Part shown: one piece after another, positions 5,553 to 57,193 of the stretch
Position numbering within the stretch: position 1 is the first letter of the stretch
How the letters are laid out: each line of letters starts with the position of its first letter
NCBI GenBank assembly: GCA_027491355.1
Contig: JAIXWI010000041.1
Coordinates: 27,627-91,626 of the forward strand
Source: Bacteroidota bacterium
Lineage (GTDB): Bacteria > Bacteroidota > Bacteroidia > UKL13-3
Direction: 5' to 3'
Length of the DNA stretch: 64,000 nt
Notes under the pieces: generated by a model
Database searches by the model: none
Seen by the model: only the letters and a program-made list of their open reading frames with translations
What the model was told of the DNA's origin: nothing
Made by a program: the position numbers and the translations under genes

Positions 5553-8500
5553 TTACCTGATGAGATAAATGTAACCTGTATGCGATTTGTTATTGGTTTT
5601 GGTAATGAATACATAGTAGTAAGTGTCGTTTGGTAAATATCCATTGTTCCCACTCATTAAAGTACCAATACTTACCTTTCCATCCCAATTGTTGCTATAG
5701 TTGAAGGTATGATATACCAATTCTCCCCAACGGTTGTAAATGCTCAATTCATTTTCTGGAAAATCTTCTATTCCTTTAATCACAAAGTTATCGTTTTTAC
5801 CATCCCCATTTGGTGAAAACCCTTCAGGAATGTATAAACCACATTTGTAAGTTGGCGTACCCTCTAAAGCTATTTCAACAGAGTCTTTGCAGCCCAATGA
5901 GTCAATTACAACGGCTTTGAAATTACCTGCTTTTAAACTCCTCATCAATGAATCTTTGGTTGCTTTTCCATTCCATGTAAACTGATATGGTGCTCTTCCT
6001 CCATAAGGTGTTAATAATACAATGCCATCTGTATCAGACTCACAAACCAATTGTTTAACAACTTCTGCACTGATTGCCACCGGATCAGGCTCTATTAACA
6101 CTATACTATCTGTTTTTGTACAACCTCTTTGGTCTGTTACTGAAAAGGTGTAAATACCCTTTGGTAATTGAACCAATTGTTGACTTGAACCAAAACCAAT
6201 CCATCCAGAACTTTGATATGGAGTGCTTCCGCCATTTATAATGGCTTTGACACTACCATTTGCTTTACCAAAACAAGTAATAGGTGATTTGATGCTTAAT
6301 AGCAAATTGATTGCAGAGGCAGGATTGGTAATTATTACGCTATCTGAAACAGTACAACCTAGTTCATCAGTTGCAGTAACTGTATATGTTCCAGGCCCTA
6401 TATTGTTGTAAACAGAATCATTGACATTGCCCGGTAACCAGTTGAAAGTTGTATTTCCTTTACCTCCTGTTGCATTTACTTTCACACTGCCGTTATTGTC
6501 ATTGAAACAAATGATATCTTGTTTGCTCAGGTTTATTTTTAGTGGCGGGTTCAATTCAATCCAAACACTGTCAGTAAAAGTACAATTGTTGTTTACAACT
6601 GAGCAGTAGATCCAACCAGTAAAATCTTTCAATACTATTGGATTACCAGTCTCTCCGTTGCTCCAATTGTAGTTGTCAAAACCATCAGGTGCCGTTAAAA
6701 TTATAGTATCTGATTCACAAGAAAGCTTGGCGATGGTATCGAAACTGAAACGAAAATTATTGGGTTCGACCACAGTTCTTATTTGAAAAGAACAAGCGCC
6801 ATCACCACTGTAATTGTATGCTTTGGGAATAGCTGTAAACTGCTGGTTTATTTTTGGTATCAAAAGCAAACTATCACCTGTTTGATTACTTGGTAACCAC
6901 GTTACTCTATTTTTATTTTCAACTATTTCTAGTAAGCCATAAATTTGTGAATAACAAGGGTCGTTTGCAGCATTGTCATCATCTAGCATGGTATTCCAAC
7001 TAAAAGGTTCGGAACAACTACTATTCATCATGTACACGTAATCTTCACCTTGATTATTTGAAGGTGCATTCGAATTCCAATTTGTGTAGGTACCAGGGTC
7101 ACAATTCATCCATACAAATTCATTGTTTTGATTACGCATCATACCTAACCATACATTTTTCTTTACAATTCTTTGTATGAATTTTTGTTCAGCAGTGTCG
7201 TTAATAATTGCCAAATAGCCACCTACAGACAGTGCTTTTTTAGCAGCATCAGACCAATTGCTTCTATTTGTAGCTACATAATAATAATGTCCTAAATACC
7301 TACCTAAATAAGTGTAACCAGGTAAAGTACTGCCATTGATGTATTTGTTTCTGACAGGACCTCCATAAGGATTGCAATTGTCGTTCCAGTTGATATTAAA
7401 TAATGTTGGACTGTTCATGCAGACTTGATTAAAAGTATCTTGCATTAAGTTGGCTCTATTGATAGCAAAAAATGAGCTATCTGTTCCTGAACAACCACCT
7501 TTACTGATATGAACCCTATACCATGTTGCTTGATTAAAAAGTGTGTTTGGGGTTTGATCTCCATTGCTCCAACTGTATTTTTCAAATCCACTTGGAGCCT
7601 GAACTGCATAGCCTGAATTGCCACAATAATAAATTGTATCAGGTAAGAATTGAATAGATAATTTATTGCTTACACTCACTTTAACAGTATCATAGCAATA
7701 GTTTCCAGGTGTACCAACTCTTGCCCAATAATTTGTGTTGGTTAACAATCCAGGTATCTGAATATTTTCTGTTGTATCTCCTGTTGACCATAAAATTCCT
7801 GTAGCTTTTCTAAGTCTAATTTGAAAATTGTCAATACTCCAACTTTCATTGCAGGCAACTAATTCAGTGTCTATCAATGTCCCTATCCATTTAAATTGCA
7901 GGGCAGTATCTTGGTGCGCAAACTTTTTACTGATACGGTATAAAGTGGTATTAGCAGAAGAATTATTAAAGCATCTTCTTGGCAAACCTGTCTGTGAGGC
8001 ATCTTGTTTTGCAGGAAAACTTCCACTATTGAACATTGCATAACTTTGGGTACAACTTGTATTGTTTGAGAAAGTATTGGAAACCGAATTTTGCTGATCT
8101 AATTGCCATGTCAATTGATCCGGACCTGTTAAAGAGCAATCACCCTCCCATGTATCATGTATGTATAAATCAAAAGCAATTTCTACAGAATCGTGTGGAA
8201 TCAATCTGCCTAACTTAAATTGTAAAGTGTCGTTATGAAAGAAACCTAGAACCTTACTACCATTGTAAGTGAAGGTTGATTGTTTATTGAAGCCATTAAA
8301 TGGAGGTAATCCAGAAAAATTTTCGTTGTAATAATCTACAAAAAAAGCTGGAGATTTTGGTCCCCGAATTTGAAATGGGGTATTGATACAAATTGAAGTA
8401 TCTGGAGTAACAATGCTTGCATTGTTGATGAGGGCATATACACTGTCAAAACCAAAACAACCACCATTACCTGTTACTTTTACTTTATGCCAACCACTTG

Positions 8501-26239: not shown

Positions 26240-27359
26240 ATTTAAATACCTGTTTCTTTTTTTAGGACTGAATTTGTTTTTATTGGCTTGTACTGAAACT
26301 GACCAAAATGAAGTAAAAGCTGGTTTTTTGTTAAAAGGTAAATTACCTGTATCCTATAAAAATTCAGTTTTGAGCATACAAGAACTCACCACAGGAGGTC
26401 TTATCAATATTGACACCGCATTGGTTGCTCAAGACGGAAGTTTCCAGTTTGATGGAATCATTAAAGAGAAAGTTTTTTGTATTGTAAGACTTAAAAATGG
26501 AGACGTTTTGATGGTATTGGATACCAATAGTCGCTTGGATTTAGAGATAGCTCCTGATTCTACTTTAAAATACAGTTTAAAAGGTTCCAGAGAAAATGAT
26601 GAACTCAAGGAGCTCTACCAAATGAATGGTCAATTTATGCAAGCTGTTCAACAGTTAGAGACCAAGTATGCGCAATTGGGAGAAGGGGTTCCCCCATTGG
26701 CAATTCAAGAACAAATTCGATTTGAATACGATAGCCTCAGAAGAAACCATGTTGCTGGAATGAGAAGTTATATCAGCGGCTTACAGCATTCAATTGTACC
26801 TTATTTTGCAACCAATTTCTTGATACCAGAAGATGACTTTGAATTTTTGTATCAAGTAGATCAGCAACTTTACAAAGAATTTTCTAACAGTAAATACGCC
26901 ATACAATTGCACCAAAAAGTTGAAGATTTAAAGCGAACCGCTTTAGGTGCTATTGCTCCTGATATTGTATTAAATGACCCATTTGGTAAAAACATTTCCT
27001 TATCTGCTTTGAGAGGAAAAGTGGTATTGGTAGATTTTTGGGCTAGTTGGTGTAAACCTTGTAGAGACGAAAATCCAAATGTTGTAAAATTGTATAACAA
27101 ATACAAATCTAAAGGTTTTGATGTGTTGGGTGTGAGTTTAGATGACAATAGGAGTGCATGGATTGATGCCATTAACCAAGATAAATTGTTATGGAACCAT
27201 GGTTCAGATTTATTGAAATGGAACAGTTCTGTTGTAAAACAATACAGCATTGATGGCATTCCATTTACAGTTTTGGTTGATAAAGATGGTAAAATCATTG
27301 GAAAATCTTTGAGAGGTAAGCAGTTGGAACTTAAATTGCAAGAATTATTTGGATTTTAA
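26232..27359 (+). CDS. TlpA-family thiol-disulfide oxidoreductase lipoprotein (N-terminal DUF4369-like domain plus thioredoxin domain)
   Basis: Lipobox LLAC. FWASWCKPCRDENP (CxxC active site). Confidence 0.9.
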   Translation: MHKFKYLFLFLGLNLFLLACTETDQNEVKAGFLLKGKLPVSYKNSVLSIQELTTGGLINIDTALVAQDGSFQFDGIIKEKVFCIVRLKNGDVLMVLDTNSRLDLEIAPDSTLKYSLKGSRENDELKELYQMNGQFMQAVQQLETKYAQLGEGVPPLAIQEQIRFEYDSLRRNHVAGMRSYISGLQHSIVPYFATNFLIPEDDFEFLYQVDQQLYKEFSNSKYAIQLHQKVEDLKRTALGAIAPDIVLNDPFGKNISLSALRGKVVLVDFWASWCKPCRDENPNVVKLYNKYKSKGFDVLGVSLDDNRSAWIDAINQDKLLWNHGSDLLKWNSSVVKQYSIDGIPFTVLVDKDGKIIGKSLRGKQLELKLQELFGF

Positions 27360-27434
27360 TTGGTTAACATTAATTTAACCCTGTCCTAACGGTAGAAAAA
27401 TCTAGCAAGTCCAATTTTACAAAAAAAAGTACAC

Positions 27435-28115
27435 ATGGAAATAGCACGTAAAATTTTGGTTGTTGATGATGAATCAGATATTCTAGATTTTATTACATAT
27501 AACCTTAAAAAGGAGGGTTATTTGGTTGCCACAGCATTTAATGGTGCTCAAGCAATTGAAGTTTCTAAAACATTCAAGCCAGACCTAATTTTATTGGACG
27601 TGATGATGCCCGTGATGGACGGAATTGAAACATGCGCTCATATTAAGAGTCTGCCTGAATTTGCTAAAACATTCATTGTCTTTTTAACGGCAAGGTCTGA
27701 GGAGTATTCTGAAATAGCGGGTTTTCAAGCAGGCGCCGATGACTATATTGCCAAACCAATTAAGCCAAAAGTGCTAATAACCAGATTGAATGCCATATTA
27801 AGAAGAAAAGACAAAGAAGAAACTGCATCTACCAAATTAGTTGTTGGAGACATAACAATTGATCGTGATTCATTTTTAGTTTACAGAGGGTCAGATAAAA
27901 TTCAACTTGCAAGAAAAGAGTTTGAATTGTTGTTTCTTTTGGCTTCTAAACCTGGTAAAGTTTTCACACGCGATTTTATTTTAGAGAAAGTTTGGGGAGA
28001 TGAAGTATTGGTTGTAGATAGAACCATTGATGTTCACATTCGTAAAATCAGAGAAAAATTAGGTGACGATTACATTGGCACTGTGAAAGGTGTAGGCTAT
28101 AAATTTGAGATATGA
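27435..28115 (+). CDS. OmpR/PhoB-family response regulator
   Basis: ILVVDDE...LDVMMP receiver domain. C-terminal winged helix ...VDVHIRKIREKL...GVGYKF. Confidence 0.9.
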   Translation: MEIARKILVVDDESDILDFITYNLKKEGYLVATAFNGAQAIEVSKTFKPDLILLDVMMPVMDGIETCAHIKSLPEFAKTFIVFLTARSEEYSEIAGFQAGADDYIAKPIKPKVLITRLNAILRRKDKEETASTKLVVGDITIDRDSFLVYRGSDKIQLARKEFELLFLLASKPGKVFTRDFILEKVWGDEVLVVDRTIDVHIRKIREKLGDDYIGTVKGVGYKFEI

Positions 28116-29161
28116 CAAGAAACCCAAAACCGTTAAACATAGCCACGCTTATTTCTGCTATATTAGCAATATGTGTAGGCAGTGTGAGTTTTGTGTTAAC
28201 TGAAAATGTATGGATCAATACGGCTATTGTTATTACCTTAACATTTGGGCTTTCATTTTTCCTCTATTTTTATTCGCTAGAATATTTCATTTATCGAAAA
28301 ATAAAATTAATCTACAAAACCATTCACAGTTTAAAAACTCAACGTTACGATGCTGTTTTGAAAAACTTTGATTGGGATAAAGATCCAATTGTTGAAATGA
28401 ATAAAGAAGTAATTAATTGGGCAAGAGACAACCGAATGGAAATTGATCAGTTGAAAAGGCTTGCTGATTTTAGGAAGGAGTTCTTAGGTAATGTTTCTCA
28501 TGAGTTAAAAACACCAATATTCAATATACAGGGTTATTTGCACACGCTCTTAGATGGTGCAATGTCTGATCCTGAAGTAAACGTTCGTTTTTTACAAAGA
28601 GCAGCAAAAAGTGCCGCACGTTTGAGTGATTTAGTTGCTGATTTATTAGCAATTAGTCAGTTAGAGAGTGGAGAGTTGGTAATGGAAATTGAACGATTTG
28701 ATATCAATTCATTGGTAAAAGATGTTTATGAACAATTAGAGGAAAAAGCAAAACGCAAACACATTGTGTTGTTGATAAAGGATGGTTGTAACAAGCCCTT
28801 TTACGTAGAAGCAGACAAATACAGAATCAGGCAGGTTTTGGTAAATTTAGTAACCAATGCCATAAAATATGGCGTAGAAAGTGGTACCATTACTGCAGCT
28901 TACTATGACATGGATGAAAACCTGTTGATTGAAATTGCTGATAACGGTGAAGGAATAGCACAAGAACATTTACCGCGCATTTTTGAACGTTTTTACAGGG
29001 TAGAGAAAAGCCGTGCAAGAGACAATGAAAACGGTGGTACAGGTCTTGGTTTAGCAATTGTAAAGCACATCATTGAAGCACATAACCAAGCTGTAAATGT
29101 AAGAAGCACGGAAGGAGCTGGAACCACATTTGGGTTTACATTGACTAAGTCTGACGTCTAG
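28112..29161 (+). CDS. PhoR-like sensor histidine kinase (two TM helices with a very short external loop)
   Basis: H-box SHELKTPI, N-box NAIKY, DNGEGI, GGTGLGLAIVKHI. ATGA overlap with the regulator gene. Confidence 0.9.
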   Translation: MTRNPKPLNIATLISAILAICVGSVSFVLTENVWINTAIVITLTFGLSFFLYFYSLEYFIYRKIKLIYKTIHSLKTQRYDAVLKNFDWDKDPIVEMNKEVINWARDNRMEIDQLKRLADFRKEFLGNVSHELKTPIFNIQGYLHTLLDGAMSDPEVNVRFLQRAAKSAARLSDLVADLLAISQLESGELVMEIERFDINSLVKDVYEQLEEKAKRKHIVLLIKDGCNKPFYVEADKYRIRQVLVNLVTNAIKYGVESGTITAAYYDMDENLLIEIADNGEGIAQEHLPRIFERFYRVEKSRARDNENGGTGLGLAIVKHIIEAHNQAVNVRSTEGAGTTFGFTLTKSDV

Positions 29162-29265
29162 ATCTCAATACCTATTTACGTATTTTATTTTGCAAGCGCT
29201 TTTATATTTTAAATGAAGATTCACATAAGACGACATTAAATCTCATCCCTAAGAAAATAAAGTTT

Positions 29266-29458
29266 GGATGTTCCGACCATTGTCAATCGGCGCACAAAAT
29301 CACCAGTGCTTGTTGTGGGAAGGCCTTTAGCAAGCGAATCCCGACAGCAATTAACAAGAAACAACAATTGGAAACCAATATTGACTTGCTGCGTTATGCG
29401 CGTGGAGAACAAGGACGCAGATAGATTTTAAGCCGATTGGGTGAGGTCTTGATTTTTT
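29266..29458 (+). ncRNA. Candidate structured small RNA, copy 1 (unassigned family)
   Basis: Nested helices: GACC 29275-78 / GGTC 29445-48; CAATCGGC 29284-91 / GCCGATTG 29432-39; GCTTGTTG 29308-15 / TAGCAAGC 29328-35; CAGCAA 29345-50 / TTGCTG 29386-91; GCGTT 29391-95 / GACGC 29414-18. Ends in TTGATTTTTT. Confidence 0.55.
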
Positions 29459-29586
29459 GCTTCCTTTTTTATCAAGAAAAAAGGTACGAAAACATGACTT
29501 TTAACTGATTCCCGTTCAAAAGCAGCAAACTCTTTTTCTGAATTTTATCAAGAAAAAAGGGACAATCAAATTCAAAACTCTCTAAC

Positions 29587-29609
29587 GACCATTCACGCAA
29601 GACCATTCA
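29587..29609 (+). promoter_or_regulatory. Paired direct-repeat boxes GACCATTCA-N5-GACCATTCA upstream of RNA copy 2
   Basis: Boxes at 29587-95 and 29601-09 (14 bp start to start). The second box starts 37 nt before the GGA at 29638. Confidence 0.4.
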
Positions 29610-29637
29610 AAATCTCATCCAAAAACCAATATCAATC

Positions 29638-29826
29638 GGATGTTCCGACCATTGTCAATCGGCGCACAAAATCACCAGTACTTGTTGTGGGTAAGCCTAC
29701 AGCAAGCGAATGCCAAAGCAAGTAACAGAAATACGTATTCAAAGCAATATGGATTGCTGCGTCAGACGCGAGGAGAACAAGGACGCAGATAGATTTTAAG
29801 CCGATTGGGTGAGGTCTTGATTTTTT
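29638..29826 (+). ncRNA. Candidate structured small RNA, copy 2
   Basis: Same helices as copy 1, with a different 32-nt segment (29722-29753) inside the AGCAA/TTGCT stem. Ends in TTGATTTTTT. Confidence 0.55.
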
Positions 29827-29957
29827 GCTTCCTTTTTTATCAAGTAAAAAGGTACGAAAAATTGACTTTTAACCAATGACCGTTCAAAAGCAGCAAACTC
29901 TTTTTTTTAAATTATTATCAAAAAAAAAGAAGCAACAAATAGAAAAAACTATCAATC

Positions 29958-30009
29958 GACCATTCACGCACAAATAACTCGCACACGACCATTCACGCAA
30001 GACTATTCA
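29958..30009 (+). promoter_or_regulatory. Three box copies (GACCATTCA, GACCATTCA, GACTATTCA) upstream of RNA copy 3
   Basis: Boxes at 29958-66, 29987-95 and 30001-09. The extra box accounts for the 400-bp period. The last box starts 37 nt before the GGA at 30038. Confidence 0.4.
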
Positions 30010-30037
30010 AAATCTCATCAAAAAGAAAATACCAATT

Positions 30038-30227
30038 GGATGTTCCGACCATTGTCAATCGGCGCACAAAATCACCAGTGCTTGTTGTGGGAAGGCCTGC
30101 AGCAAGCGAATGCCAAAGCAACAAACCATAGTTCCATATTAAATAGAAATTTAGATTGCTGCGTCAGACGCGTGGAGAACAAGGACGCAGATAGATTTTA
30201 AGCCGATTGGCGAAGGTCTTGATTTTT
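30038..30227 (+). ncRNA. Candidate structured small RNA, copy 3
   Basis: Same helices, with a different 34-nt segment (30122-30155). Internal-loop change GGTGA to GCGAA. Ends in TTGATTTTT. Confidence 0.55.
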
Positions 30228-30358
30228 GGGGTACCTTTTTTATCAAGAAAAAAGGTACGGAAATATGACTTTTAACCAATTCCCGATCAAAAGCAGCAAA
30301 CTCTTTTTCTGAATTTTATCAAGAAAAAAGAAGAAACAAATAGAAAAAACTCTCAAAC

Positions 30359-30381
30359 GACCATTCACGCAAGACCATTCA
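30359..30381 (+). promoter_or_regulatory. Same paired GACCATTCA boxes upstream of the S46 peptidase gene
   Basis: Boxes at 30359-67 and 30373-81. The second box starts 37 nt before the GGA at 30410, where array homology ends. The peptidase ATG is at 30512. Confidence 0.4.
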
Positions 30382-30511
30382 AAATCTCATCCCAAAACCA
30401 ATTTCGTTTGGAAGCTATTTATGTTTTGATATCCCACCTAACATATAAGATAATATACACAATCTATGCATTTAGTTGAATTTTGACCTTGTTCAGTTTT
30501 ATATTCGTTTC

Positions 30512-32677
30512 ATGAATAAGTTATATACCTTTTTGGCTACAATCCTGGTGCTGGTTACTTTCACTGCTGCAAAACTAATAAACCCAGATGAGGGCATGTT
30601 CCCTTTGTCTGAAATCAAACAATTGGAATTAAAAAAAATTGGTCTTAAAATGGATCCAATGGCATTATACAATCCACAAGGAATTAGTCAAATAGATGCC
30701 ATTGTTAGGGTAGGAGGATGTACAGGTTCTTTTGTTTCAGACGATGGTTTAATTGTTACTAATCACCATTGTGCATTCAGTTTTGTACATGCCATCAGCG
30801 ATACACAGAACAAGTATGTTGACAAAGGATTTTTAGCTAAAACTAGAACAGAAGAAGTACCAGCAAAAGGACTGGTTTGCAAAATTACAGCCAGTTATGA
30901 AGATGTCAGTGCAAAGGTTTTAATGGGTACCCAAGTTACCAATGACCCAATGATCCGCTTAAAAATTATTTCTGACAACATTAAAAATTTAACTGAATCC
31001 GAAAACAAATTGCATCCCAATTTGCAATGTGAAATTTCTGAAATGTTTACTGGAAGAACCTACGTGTTGTTTCGTTACCAATTGTTAAAAGACGTGAGAT
31101 TGGTTTACGTTCCAGGCAGGAGCATTGGAGAGTATGGTGGCGAAAAAGACAATTGGGTTTGGCCAAGACACAGTGGAGATTTTGCATTTTTGAGAGCCTA
31201 TGTAGGTAAAGATGGAACCCCTGCAAACTATAGTCTTGAAAACGTTCCTTACAAACCTGTAAAACATTTAAATATCAATATCAAAGGCATCAAAGAAAAT
31301 GATTTTGTATTTATTTTGGGTTATCCAGGAAGGACATTTAGGAACCAACCTGCAGCATTTTACAAGTATCACGAACAATACCTTTTGAAATATGTCAGTG
31401 AATTGTACAATTGGCAAATCAATTTCATGGAACAATTGGGTACAGGTAATCAATTCCTTGAACTGAAGTATGCTGCACGCATTAAAAGTTTAGCCAATAC
31501 CGCCAAAAACTATGAAGGCAAATTGCAAGGTTTTAGAAGGGTAGGGCTTACCAAAAACAAAGAAATAGACGAGCAGTTAATGCAAGAATTCATCAATAAA
31601 GACGATACGCGTAAAAAGAGATACGGCAACCTGATTCCTACTATCAATACCTTGTATGCAGACATCATCCGATATGCTCCAAGGAATTTGTTTTATGATT
31701 ATTTGTATGGCATGTCTCCAAGTTTTCAGTTTTTAGCTGCAATAGATAATTACCAAACAGCTTTTGCAAAATTGAAAACCAAAGAAGAGAAAGCGGCCTT
31801 TTTAGCCAAACAAGTTCCTAGATTAAAACAATTGTACCAGAAGCTATTTGCGCAAATGGACCCTGTTTTGGAACAACCCTTGATTGAAAAACTATTGGAA
31901 GAAGCAAGTCAATACAATGTCGATAACCGTGTAGAAACGGTCGTGAAATTCTATAAAAAATTTGGTGACAAAGTTGCCAGAACCAAGGCAATTGCAGAAT
32001 TGTTCAACAACGCCATTCAATTAAATGAAGGCAAAATGAACCAATTATTAGCCGATTCAAATGAGAAAATCATGCACATCAAATTGCCATTACAAGATTG
32101 GGTACATTTGATGAACCAAGAAGTTAATAAGTACGACGACGAAGACAAGCAAAGAGAGGCAGCACTAAATTCCTTACTGGCTAAATATGTAGATGCAAAA
32201 AGCGAATTCAAACAAGCATCTTTTATTCCAGATGCAAATGGTACACTTAGGTTTACTTATGGCAATGTAAAAGGCTATGCTCCTAACGATGCTGTTTGGA
32301 ACAAACCATTTACAACACTCAGAGGTGTAATAGAAAAAGAAGATGGGAAAGATTTTGAATTGATGCAAATAATCAAAGAATTGTATTTAGCCAAAGACTA
32401 TGGTCAATATTTACATCCTGATTTAGGCGATTTGCCTATTGATTTTTTATACAATTTAGATACTACCGGTGGCAATAGTGGGAGTCCTGTAATGGATGAA
32501 AATGGGGATTTGGTTGGTGTCAATTTTGACAGGGCCTATACTGCAACCATCAATGACTATGCATGGAATGAGTCTTATTCGAGAAGTGTAGCTGTAGACA
32601 TCCGTTATGTTTGTTGGGTACTTGATAAAGTTGCAGGTGCTAAACATTTGTTAAAAGAAATGCAGGTACCTCAGTAA
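30512..32677 (+). CDS. S46 family dipeptidyl-peptidase (DPP7/DPP11 type)
   Basis: GGCTGSFVSDDGLIVTNHHCA (catalytic His region) and DTTGGNSGSPV (catalytic Ser). ATG at 30512 gives the signal peptide MNKLYTFLATILVLV. Confidence 0.9.
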   Translation: MNKLYTFLATILVLVTFTAAKLINPDEGMFPLSEIKQLELKKIGLKMDPMALYNPQGISQIDAIVRVGGCTGSFVSDDGLIVTNHHCAFSFVHAISDTQNKYVDKGFLAKTRTEEVPAKGLVCKITASYEDVSAKVLMGTQVTNDPMIRLKIISDNIKNLTESENKLHPNLQCEISEMFTGRTYVLFRYQLLKDVRLVYVPGRSIGEYGGEKDNWVWPRHSGDFAFLRAYVGKDGTPANYSLENVPYKPVKHLNINIKGIKENDFVFILGYPGRTFRNQPAAFYKYHEQYLLKYVSELYNWQINFMEQLGTGNQFLELKYAARIKSLANTAKNYEGKLQGFRRVGLTKNKEIDEQLMQEFINKDDTRKKRYGNLIPTINTLYADIIRYAPRNLFYDYLYGMSPSFQFLAAIDNYQTAFAKLKTKEEKAAFLAKQVPRLKQLYQKLFAQMDPVLEQPLIEKLLEEASQYNVDNRVETVVKFYKKFGDKVARTKAIAELFNNAIQLNEGKMNQLLADSNEKIMHIKLPLQDWVHLMNQEVNKYDDEDKQREAALNSLLAKYVDAKSEFKQASFIPDANGTLRFTYGNVKGYAPNDAVWNKPFTTLRGVIEKEDGKDFELMQIIKELYLAKDYGQYLHPDLGDLPIDFLYNLDTTGGNSGSPVMDENGDLVGVNFDRAYTATINDYAWNESYSRSVAVDIRYVCWVLDKVAGAKHLLKEMQVPQ

Positions 32678-32874
32678 GTATTACTTTACAATGTTCAATT
32701 GCTTTAACAAATGTAAACTCGAAGGTCAGTCTATCGTAAAATATTGATATTGAGTTGCATACTGATTTTTGGTGTTGGTTTCATGCTTTGAATGAAAATT
32801 TAGCCAACGTAAAACTTTTATCAAATTGGATTGTAATTTATTTAGACTAAGTATAAACAGCAATAAAAAAGCTG

Positions 32875-32882
32875 TATTTTTG
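32875..32882 (+). promoter_or_regulatory. Candidate Bacteroidota -7 promoter box for the suf operon
   Basis: TATTTTTG matches TAnnTTTG exactly, 25 nt before the sufB ATG. Confidence 0.4.
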
Positions 32883-32906
32883 TAGCCTCAATTTAAATCA
32901 AATTCA

Positions 32907-34352
32907 ATGACAGAAGCGTCGAACATCATAGACCAGGTTGTGAGTCAAGAATATCAGTATGGTTTCAGTACTGCTATTGAAATGGAGACTGCTCCAATAG
33001 GTTTAAGCGAAGACATCGTTAGGTTTATCTCAGCCAAGAAAAACGAACCTGAGTGGATGTTAAATTACAGGCTCAAGGCATACAAACATTGGTTAACCAT
33101 GGAGGAACCCAATTGGCAAAACTTCAATTACCCACCTATAGATTTCCAAAACATCATCTACTATGCTGCACCCAAAGAAAAAAAGAAGCTCAATAGTTTA
33201 GATGAGGTTGATCCTGAATTGTTAAAAACGTTTGAGAAACTAGGCATTTCATTGACTGAACAAAAAAGATTGACGGGTGTTGCTGTAGATGCTGTATTTG
33301 ATTCAGTTTCTATTGCCACAACATTCAAAGATCAATTGAAAGAAAAAGGGGTTATTTTCTGTAGCATGAGCGAAGCTGTTCATGAACACCCCGAGTTGGT
33401 AAAGCAATATTTAGGTTCTGTAGTGCCATACACCGACAATTATTTTGCAGCTTTAAATGCAGCGGTATTTTCAGATGGTTCTTTTGTATACATTCCAAAA
33501 GGAGTGCGTTGTCCTATGGAGTTATCCACTTATTTCAGAATCAATGCAGAAAACACCGGTCAATTTGAACGTACATTGATCATAGCTGATGACCATTCAT
33601 ACGTTTCTTATCTAGAGGGTTGTACAGCACCCATGCGTGACGAAAATCAATTGCATGCTGCGGTGGTAGAATTGGTGGCACACACGCATGCTGAAATCAA
33701 ATACTCTACTGTACAAAACTGGTATCCAGGAGACAAAGATGGCAAAGGTGGGATCTATAATTTCGTTACTAAAAGAGGAACTTGTGAAGGGGATTATGCC
33801 AAAATTTCTTGGACGCAAGTTGAAACTGGAAGTGCCATTACCTGGAAATACCCAAGTTGTGTGTTAAAAGGTAACCATTCAAATGGTGAGTTCTTTTCAG
33901 TTGCAGTAACCAACAATGCACAGTTAGCTGATACTGGCACCAAAATGATACATTTAGGCAGCCATACAAAAAGTAGAATTGTATCAAAAGGTATATCAGC
34001 CGGAAAATCTCACAATACTTATAGGGGTTTGGTAAAAGTTGCTGCAAAAGCTACAGATGCCAGAAACTATACCCAATGTGACAGCATGCTCATTGGTGAT
34101 CGTTCTGGCGCACACACTTTTCCTTACATAGAAGTAGCAAACTCATCGGCTGTGGTTGAACATGAAGCCAGTACCAGTAAAATAGGTGAAGATCAAATTT
34201 TTTACTGTAACCAAAGAGGCATAGGCACTGAAGAAGCCATTGGTTTAATTGTAAACGGATTTTGTAAAGAAGTATTGAACCAATTGCCAATGGAATTTGC
34301 AGTAGAAGCTCAGAAATTATTGGCCGTTTCATTAGAAGGGTCGGTAGGATAA
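32907..34352 (+). CDS. sufB: Fe-S cluster assembly scaffold SufB
   Basis: 481 aa; ...[21 protein letters not shown]..., FYCNQRGI; first gene of a suf cluster. Confidence 0.95.
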
Positions 34353-57021: not shown

Positions 57022-57106
57022 CGGAGAGAGAGGGATTCGAACCCCCGGACCTGTTACAGTCAACAGTTTTCAAGACTGCCGCAATCGACCACTCTGCCAT
57101 CTCTCC
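57022..57106 (-). tRNA. tRNA-Ser (anticodon UGA), class II with a long variable arm
   Basis: The reverse complement reads GGAGAGA-TG-GCA..TGC-G-GCAGT-CT TGA AA-ACTGT-long arm-GGGGG-TTCGAAT-CCCTC-TCTCTCC-G. All four stems pair. Confidence 0.95.
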
Positions 57107-57193
57107 GCTGCGAAAATAAGCTTAGTAATGTGAATACCAAAAAAAAAAGCGCTTTGGAGTTTCCAAAGCGCTTTTTCTTGTTTGAAGTAGCTG

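Follow-up and report, generated by a model that had tools for sequence, protein, structure and literature searches.

An intergenic gap in the genome of a Bacteroidota bacterium carries three tandem units, each containing the same long imperfect hairpin. We tentatively interpret these units, at somewhat less than an even chance, as members of a lineage-specific family of cassettes that would encode a rod-shaped non-coding RNA on the + strand and that were spread and shuffled by DNA recombination. The window analysed is a stretch of 64,000 nt from contig JAIXWI010000041.1 (positions 27,627 to 91,626 of the forward strand; assembly GCA_027491355.1; GTDB lineage Bacteria; Bacteroidota; Bacteroidia; UKL13-3), and coordinates below refer to the window unless another locus is named. 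The lineage is a freshwater group without cultured members, known only from metagenome bins. An initial annotation, made from the letters of the window alone, had proposed three copies of a ~190 nt structured RNA-like core in a gap free of open reading frames (ORFs); it had not noticed the conserved flanks of these cores, their status as an insertion, or the dispersed multicopy family with mosaic, mobile-like behaviour to which they belong.

A predicted rod-shaped fold shared by 13 copies

The gap between a histidine-kinase gene and a peptidase gene holds three direct copies, with start-to-start distances of 368/403 and 372/400 nt in the repeat search, and the 5′ 67 nt of the unit are present a fourth time at 30346-30412. 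Three GC-enriched cores are indeed there, each of ~175 nt and with a GC content of 0.42-0.46 versus 0.26-0.34 in the spacers. When the units were aligned, the sequence that is actually repeated proved to be longer than the annotated core, namely 372-400 nt including conserved flanks. The array (29204-30412, + strand) thus consists of repeat unit 1 (29204-29575, with a degenerate upstream module), unit 2 (29576-29975, with an extra ACCATTCACGCA copy in its spacer), unit 3 (29976-30347) and a fourth, partial unit (30348-30412), as delimited by repeat search and alignment; Tandem Repeats Finder did not report it. The fourth unit comprises only the upstream module (GACCATTCA twice, AAATCTCATCC and TTTGGAAGC) and stops where the next hairpin would start, ~100 nt 5′ of the peptidase start codon.

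For the fold model we used 13 full copies from four genomes or metagenome contigs, from which small palindromic insertions were removed before alignment (alignment A2), and combined RNAalifold with a refined model with explicit pair counts. The 13 copies yielded a single long nested hairpin, hereafter the rod, with six helices and 41 pairs: P1 (GACC/GGUC, A2 columns 13-16/185-188), P2 (CAAKCGGC/GCCGAUUG, 22-29/172-179), P3 (AAAAUC/GAUUUU, 34-39/164-169), P4 (GUGCUUGUU/AACAAGGAC, 45-53/148-156), P5 (GCGAAU/AUUCGC, 74-79/136-141) and P6 (GACAGCAA/UUGCUGUC, 82-90/126-133), enclosing a variable tip (91-125). Standard pairs fill 90.4% of the cells formed by the 41 nested pairs in the 13 copies versus 35-41% with slid partners, both-sided changes affect 8 of the 41 pairs (22 cells), and the covariation score is 0.119 versus 0.057 in shuffles (0 of 500 reached 0.119), the structure having been derived from the same sequences on which it was assessed. 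In P4, five copies carry GUAAUUGUU/AACAAUUAC in place of GUGCUUGUU/AACAAGGAC (GC..GG to AA..UU), and mixed copies were never seen; in two copies, GGAAA/UUUCC takes the place of AGCAA/UUGCU in P6. The AGCAA/TTGCT stem, recognized already in the initial annotation, covaries across the homologues (A-U to G-C in three copies, C-G to A-U in two). The long-range helices P3 and P4, the latter including its GUAAUUGUU/AACAAUUAC switch, are 96% and 92% paired. The rod arms are nearly invariant even in their unpaired internal loops, of which the central one is lopsided (20 nt versus 6 nt). The homologues therefore show helices with compensatory substitutions, as expected of a structured RNA, within the bounds of few lineages and of a structure taken from the sequences themselves.

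In the window, rod 1 extends from the 5′ to the 3′ strand of P1 at 29275-29448 (198.6 bits with the covariance model), rod 2 covers 29647-29816 (191.7 bits) and rod 3 covers 30047-30218 (194.7 bits), all on the + strand according to folding. In rod 1 the helices lie at 29275-29278/29445-29448 (P1), 29284-29291/29432-29439 (P2), 29296-29301/29424-29429 (P3) and 29306-29314/29408-29416 (P4). The outer helices that had been described, GACC/GGTC and CAATCGGC/GCCGATTG (CAAUCGGC/GCCGAUUG as RNA), occur in the predicted folds of all three cores and are kept in all 13 homologues as P1 and P2. Fold energies of the cores lie between -56 and -62 kcal/mol; relative to dinucleotide shuffles, the z-scores are -1.8, -2.7 and -3.6. 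The inner hairpins of the same annotation, GCTTGTTG/CAGCAAGC and GCGTC/GACGC, are predicted exactly in window copies 2 and 3 but are only 72% and 71% paired in the family as a whole, so that the homologues back the outer helices and the AGCAA stem and not these hairpins. In the ten copies from elsewhere, imposing them carries a penalty of 11-30 kcal/mol; there they are replaced by the long-range helices P3 and P4, and the rod lies 0-4 kcal/mol from the minimum. In the three window copies, the initially annotated fold is at or within 1.2 kcal/mol of the predicted minimum and the rod is 6-10 kcal/mol worse; the window variant may be bistable or internally rewired. As modelled, the rod is the family-wide feature and the inner hairpins are specific to the window copies.

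The claim of a structured element on the + strand is likewise supported. Folding energies are more favourable for the + than for the - strand in 13 of 14 copies (sums of -656 versus -565 kcal/mol), and P1 to P5 together with the P6 core contain five G-U cells and zero A-C cells; the T at 29395 opposite G29414 is as described. The strand evidence favours the + strand, although folded + strand DNA would give the same bias.

The units appear not to code for protein, in line with the earlier assessment. The longest ORFs in 29162-30511 have 58 and 55 aa and none reaches 60 aa, and small ORFs within or between the cores show no frame conservation across the three units: the one on the + strand meets a stop at codon 21 in unit 1, with frames diverging downstream of the variable segment, and unit 2 has a frameshift in the short, T-rich - strand ORF of the spacers. 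For lack of a conserved ORF, small-peptide coding is rejected. These observations also bear on type I toxin-antitoxin repeats of the E. coli LDR/SIB kind, which would account for tandem units of 370-400 nt with their own signals, for a highly structured RNA with paired 5′ and 3′ ends and for T-rich - strand ORFs in the spacers. With no reading frame retained from unit to unit, and with ORF-bearing spacers that are not shared with homologues in other genomes, such a system is extremely improbable here.

Insertion, dispersal and conserved flanks of the units

Using the peptidase gene as a lead, we collected 80 related loci, the two closest of which (L001 and L002) are 89-91% identical in the peptidase and 82-85% in the flanking DNA (blastn, window 27000-33000). 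Neither has a counterpart of window ~29146-30438, and only 67-73 nt separate kinase stop and peptidase start in these two loci. The segment that they lack spans 29150-30441 on the + strand, from the histidine-kinase stop region to a conserved ATATAAGATAATATACAC 5′ of the S46 peptidase gene; in more distant relatives, a 600-aa gene on the opposite strand occupies the kinase-peptidase junction. At the insertion edge (29146-29161) the C-terminal codons of the kinase read TKSDV* in the window versus TRSTL* in L001 and L002, hence the insertion altered the last codons of this gene, and no target-site duplication is visible at the window insertion edges in comparison with the two loci. From this alignment, the array is a ~1.3-kb insertion between two ordinary genes. 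Public (Logan) contigs with an identical kinase end 134 nt past the kinase, at the first conserved arm, as expected for a sequence that is repeated elsewhere in the genome. A look-up of the junctions of other strains via the peptidase returned no identical protein on record.

The genes around the array are all on the + strand: an OmpR-type response regulator gene (27435-28115), its partner histidine-kinase gene on the 5′ flank (28112-29161) and the S46-family peptidase gene on the 3′ flank (30512-32677). The array ends in a spare promoter-like upstream module, that of the fourth unit; should this module be a promoter, the insertion may have altered expression of the peptidase gene. We also considered that the neighbouring two-component system might exert control via the GACCATTCA direct repeats; this is not supported, as the same repeats accompany copies without such a neighbour and have a period of 14 nt.

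Searches for relatives of the element gave a consistent picture. With Rfam 15 (4227 models, including 6S, 6S-Flavo, Flavo-1, Bacteroidales-1, HEARO, Y RNA, riboswitches and ribozymes) at gathering scores, the whole window yielded one tRNA only; at E ≤ 10, region 29100-30560 gave only chance-level matches of 13-23 bits versus thresholds of 39-91, and at the homologous loci no match to the element was obtained with gathering or permissive settings. The earlier failure to place the core in any known RNA family thus holds, now for Flavo-1 as well. Exact 19-21-mers from window-specific parts found in the genome collection either no match or 20 scattered matches in unrelated phyla, none of which was extended by nhmmer. 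A metagenome scan led to two contigs of one sample (L105 and L106) that revealed which bases are conserved, and it was owing to these bases that a scan of the genome collection with ATTTTAAGCCGATTGGNNNNGGTC succeeded, returning 11 stretches, all from the two metagenome-assembled genomes (MAGs) to which L001 and L002 belong, the closest relatives of the window. Copies occur on at least seven contigs of one MAG and at least five of the other, often at contig ends. The two MAGs are 98-99% identical at some loci and only 89.5% at the peptidase locus (pairs L117/L115, L113/L118 and L001/L002), which suggests mosaic genomes, recent exchange or mixed bins.

No homologues were found among viral contigs or phage and plasmid records. 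A viral match of 24/25 nt lies inside a phage ORF and was treated as chance, and Persicobacter plasmid matches are limited to a low-complexity CTTGATTTTTTG...TTTTTTATCAAG hairpin. On one of these plasmids (L135, Persicobacter sp. JZB09 plasmid CP012861.1, 700-732) the hairpin CCTTGATTTTTTGTTTCGTTTTTTATCAAGG resembles TCTTGATTTTTTGCTTCCTTTTTTATCAAGA 3′ of each rod, and eleven places of this kind exist on five Persicobacter/Aureibacter plasmids, again a low-complexity match. A covariance model of the rod detected no copy in ~1 Mb from 80 other Bacteroidota, and no relevant account of such a repeat or small RNA in Bacteroidota came up in a literature search. As far as can be seen from these sequences, the family is multicopy and dispersed, and apparently does not reach beyond a narrow lineage and one further, more divergent variant. 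Neither Rfam nor the phage and plasmid collections contain this undescribed family, while its general kind, multicopy structured intergenic elements or small-RNA paralogues, is familiar.

Dispersed solitary copies share more than the rod. Their upstream module reads CGCAAGAC ... AAUYUCAUCC ... AACCAAU ... GUUCGGAAGC and reaches the rod, which is followed by a U-rich tract, a hairpin (CCUUUUUU-AUCAAG-AAAAAAGG; module H, found at a fixed distance 3′ of the rod in every homologue) and ACCATTC direct repeats. Homology between these copies extends ~70-100 nt upstream and ~50-80 nt downstream of the inverted repeats. In the window, on the + strand, the U-rich tract TTGATTTTTT and module H (CCTTTTTT-ATCAAG-AAAAAAGG) occupy 29449-29486 and recur at 29817-29854 and 30219-30257, and the upstream module, with direct repeats CGACCATTCACGCAAGACCATTCA followed by AAATCTCATCC, is found at 29586-29620, 29986-30020 and 30358-30392 and, in degenerate form, at 29227-29248. 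The upstream and downstream flanks are not inverted copies of each other, and the inverted repeats of the rod therefore do not bound the duplicated unit. With its order of upstream module, rod, U-tract and hairpin, the unit is asymmetric and looks gene-like, unlike a transposon with inverted ends. This asymmetry, together with modules shared at solitary copies, argues against a transposon bounded by the inverted repeats of the rod. We rejected a transposable unit with terminal inverted repeats and target duplication, given that homology outruns the repeats and no duplication is seen at the window edges.

Upstream of P1, and ending 12-13 nt from it, lies an 8-mer similar to the Bacteroidota -7 box, and it is plausible from the sequence that the flanking modules are the promoter and terminator of the unit. 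Elsewhere in the window, the tRNA gene at 57022-57106 (- strand) is preceded, at 57107-57150, by a Bacteroidota promoter of the form TTTG-N19-TATTTTCG, and the upstream gene has its terminator, a hairpin plus T-run, at ~57150-57180.

The rods do not stand alone in the relatives but are part of larger mosaic repeat regions. They are flanked by further repeated modules, among them a hairpin set (ACACTCCTAACGGAGTGT / GCACCTAACGGTGC / CAACTCCTACGGAGTTG) and a module TTTCGGCTCCGCTCAACGGYCCTAAAA with a faint likeness to a tRNA 3′ end; modules of this kind lie at positions 140-235 and 1445-1540 of locus L107, in the flanks of L119, L111, L110 and L114, at 8755-8775 of L105, and at 1-20 and ~1205-1225 of L106. 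Two families of small palindromic repeats, single or as doublets (CCCTGATGAAGCnnnGCTTATCAGGAT and TACTGACGAGGCTTTGCCTGTCAGCA, with a longer relative TGCTGAC...GTCAGCATTTA), have a REP-like look and sit after TTG or ACG, in rod loops or just after the rod (L107 333-363, 1878-1935 and 3548-3625; L110, L111, L114, L117 and L119; none in the window). The small palindromes CCCTGATGAAGC...GCTTATCAGGAT and TACTGACGAGGC...GCCTGTCAGCA were found only in internal loops of the rod or just after P1; such helix-sparing insertions fit selection on the fold, and a target preference of the palindromes could also explain them. Truncated or internally deleted copies occur as well (L107 copy A, L107 3480-3680 and L105 8640-8714). 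Directly abutting a truncated 3′-arm copy, L105 8482-8576 (- strand) matches the SAM-I/IV riboswitch with 61 bits, the gathering score being 41.1; the riboswitch precedes two small ORFs (7952-8320 and 7643-7948) without a Pfam match.

Much of this distribution would also be produced under the main rival reading, a selfish or neutral structured DNA repeat of the kind of ERIC/IRU, Correia or Neisseria mosaic elements. Such a repeat would have no RNA function of its own and would be copied by recombination or by a trans-acting enzyme; its hairpin would reflect either inverted repeats maintained for this enzyme or just the way in which the repeat originated. The many copies on separate contigs, so often at their ends, the presence of the array in the window and its absence at the same locus in L001 and L002, the break of the Logan contigs, the embedding of copies within mosaics of other modules and small palindromes, the degraded copies and the very narrow taxonomic range all suit this explanation. 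We nevertheless regard it as rather unlikely, though worth serious weight: the unit is asymmetric and reaches past the inverted repeats on both sides, the insertion left no target-site duplication that we could see, the arms are unequal in length with unequal internal loops conserved in sequence, conservation along the unit is strongly uneven and not a uniform decay, folding energy is biased by strand, and no transposase stands beside any of the ~20 copies or within the examined loci.

The location of copies relative to genes was considered for a further alternative, a cis-acting transcribed hairpin that insulates, terminates or stabilises neighbouring mRNAs in the manner of a REP/ERIC-like 3′ untranslated region. 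Of the ten copies that could be scored, seven have a same-strand gene upstream of them, as the window array has with the kinase operon; the rod is followed by a U-rich tract, and the surroundings of the array are co-directional. Such a role is nonetheless improbable, considering that three of the ten copies are not downstream of a co-directional gene, that orientation towards the downstream gene is mixed (four against five), that three tandem copies with their own upstream modules are hard to square with a terminator, and that a stabilising hairpin needs neither invariant unpaired loops nor discrete tip types.

Variable tips and their cargo

Among the window units, the arms are 93-100% identical and the tips only 45-52%. 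The tips of rod 1 (29351-29385, between AGCAA and TTGCT), rod 2 (29722-29753) and rod 3 (30122-30155), all on the + strand, thus appear essentially unrelated in sequence. In the relatives, one tip type is common to four dispersed copies whose upstream modules differ more than their tips, which means that tips occur in discrete, maintained versions. An identical tip sequence was also found on both P4 arm types, from which it follows that copies recombine. In rod 1, tip positions 29357-29370 are perfectly complementary over 14 nt to AATTGTTGTTTCTT in the response-regulator gene (27925-27938); no other tip-to-target pairing of note was seen within the window, and this one is borderline, as matches of 12-14 nt arise with shuffled tips too.

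L106 has, in place of the tip, an insert of 836 nt that contains a Gp49(HigB-like)/HTH_3 toxin-antitoxin operon in the same orientation. This operon (~710 nt, L106 228-937) recurs with 86% DNA identity in many unrelated contexts without the arms (L120 to L134), its proteins have thousands of close relatives, and it behaves as a very mobile module in Bacteroidota. Judged from these occurrences, the operon is a mobile module in its own right, which either landed in the tip or was brought there by recombination. The possibility that the arms are the untranslated ends of the toxin-antitoxin mRNA was ruled out by the same occurrences. Further gene associations were noted: L107 has a RhuM-family gene behind a 5′ arm, a Fic gene between units and one unit that has lost its whole rod; a solitary 3′ arm is present in L105; and MNT/HepT genes adjoin a further copy.

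Tips that are unrelated among otherwise near-identical units, an insert placed exactly at the tip, the RhuM gene after a 5′ arm and neighbours that are typical cassette cargo (Fic, MNT/HepT, HigBA-like) recall a DNA recombination or cassette site that acts as an attC-like folded single strand and for which the tips would be the cassettes, all the more as the outer part of the rod, with an 8-bp box, a 5-nt spacer and a 4-bp box on both sides, recalls the R and L boxes of attC. However, RYYYAAC/GTTRRRY boxes are absent, the boxes here being CAAKCGGC/GCCGATTG and GACC/GGTC; the cargo is enclosed by the hairpin instead of lying between two of them; the majority of copies stand alone in ordinary intergenic DNA, with no integrase near the examined loci; only one complete case of cargo in a tip was found; and the toxin-antitoxin module moves on its own. 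A cassette site of this type is therefore very unlikely, and an integron attC in the strict sense was rejected on the missing R-box consensus and on the position of the cargo in L106.

Two ideas about tandem or rod-like RNAs were also rejected. Type III toxin-antitoxin RNA repeats (ToxI type, with ~36-nt repeats 5′ of an endoribonuclease toxin gene) do not agree with a period of 372-400 nt, with an S46 peptidase gene downstream or with solitary copies that have unrelated neighbours. 6S RNA does not agree with three tandem copies, with many copies in relatives and none at the locus in L001 and L002, with a loop of 20 versus 6 nt, or with the missing covariance-model match at E ≤ 10.

Interpretation and comparison with known systems

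Under the reading that we prefer, each unit would be a gene-like cassette for a putative ~175-185-nt ncRNA on the + strand. The conserved upstream module with its -7-like box would provide the promoter, and the U-tract after the rod and the next hairpin would end the transcript. The near-invariance of the unpaired loops suggests a protein-binding scaffold, and the discrete tips suggest copy-specific recognition; accordingly worded, the conserved arms could form a docking surface for a protein and the variable tip could confer the specificity of each copy, probably by base pairing. Spread and reshuffling would be due to DNA recombination and not to a transposase acting on inverted ends, and the window array would go back to a single insertion event between the kinase gene and the peptidase gene, with tandem duplication thereafter.

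Several points weigh against this cassette reading. In P2, 9 of the 13 copies carry an uncompensated G.A mismatch, and three copies have a C.C mismatch in P3. Few lineages stand behind the 13 copies, and hence few independent compensatory events; moreover, inverted repeats recognised as DNA would covary too. The -7-like box has 5/6 specified bases in only four copies and 2-4/6 in most others, is missing in L105, and no -33 TTTG was found upstream of the element. The TTGATTTTT(T) after each core is as described in the initial annotation, but the terminator-like quality ascribed to the core end is weak: only a 4-bp helix precedes the U-tract, and rod plus U-tract, which do not make a canonical hairpin plus U-tract, were not called by the terminator scan. 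Multicopy dispersal, presence or absence at a locus, truncated copies and embedding among repeats fit selfish DNA. Finally, we purely infer the proposed action as protein scaffold with a pairing tip, for which neither a partner nor a target turned up.

A bolder version of the argument would see in the rods a new modular RNA or single-stranded DNA site, in which an invariant scaffold is recognised by a dedicated protein and the tip is either programmable, in a guide-like manner, or an entry point for foreign DNA such as toxin-antitoxin operons. We consider this a long shot, improbable on present evidence; if true, it would mean that Bacteroidota possess a cassette or guide system that has so far escaped notice.

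The small RNAs of Bacteroidota have been little explored, and to our knowledge neither Hfq nor ProQ is present in these bacteria. Should the RNA prove real, its conserved unpaired loops, discrete tip types and multicopy tandem dosage would make it a candidate for a protein-bound RNA with swappable specificity and would give a handle on a new RNA-protein system. If the units are selfish DNA, they would cleanly illustrate how a gene-sized structured repeat remodels the DNA between genes, here through the addition of 1.3 kb and a spare promoter-like module ahead of a peptidase gene, and how such a repeat also breaks metagenome assemblies. Either way, the family is not in current RNA and repeat libraries, and some of its traits are unusual: the unit is asymmetric and as large as a gene, and the tip is exchangeable and can hold cargo.

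Known systems share some of these traits. 6S RNA and 6S-Flavo (RF00013, RF01685) are similar in size (~175-185 nt) and in their rod shape, in which ~40 nt on each side form the closing stem and are followed by a large internal loop and a terminal stem, and they offer the idea of a protein-binding RNA scaffold. 6S RNA, however, is a conserved gene of one or two copies, whereas the element described here is multicopy and variable in presence, has a lopsided internal loop and matches neither model even permissively. Integron attC sites and cassette arrays likewise have imperfect hairpins with two boxed helices, 5-nt spacers and a variable terminal part, are found near toxin-antitoxin and Fic genes and form arrays of single orientation, as in L107; they differ by their R-box consensus, by cargo outside the hairpin, by their arrangement compared with our mostly solitary copies and by the integrase, of which none was seen at the examined loci.

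The structured intergenic repeats of Proteobacteria, such as ERIC/IRU and Correia, are comparable in being multicopy, intergenic and present in either orientation, in forming a long imperfect hairpin with internal insertions at fixed points, in their lineage-restricted range and in not encoding a transposase. The unit of this family differs in its length of ~350 nt, its asymmetry with non-palindromic conserved flanks, its unequal arms and conserved loops, and in having no terminal inverted repeats that bound it and no visible target duplication. The arrangement in the window also resembles tandem small-RNA families such as the NsiR1 arrays in Nostoc, LhrC1-5 in Listeria, Qrr and PrrF1/2, in which near-identical genes stand head to tail in an intergenic gap with their own signals and paralogues differ mainly in one segment. 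There is no relation to these in sequence or Rfam family; the putative RNA of the present family would be far longer and rod-shaped, and the family is in addition dispersed, with ten or more copies per genome and insertion polymorphism.

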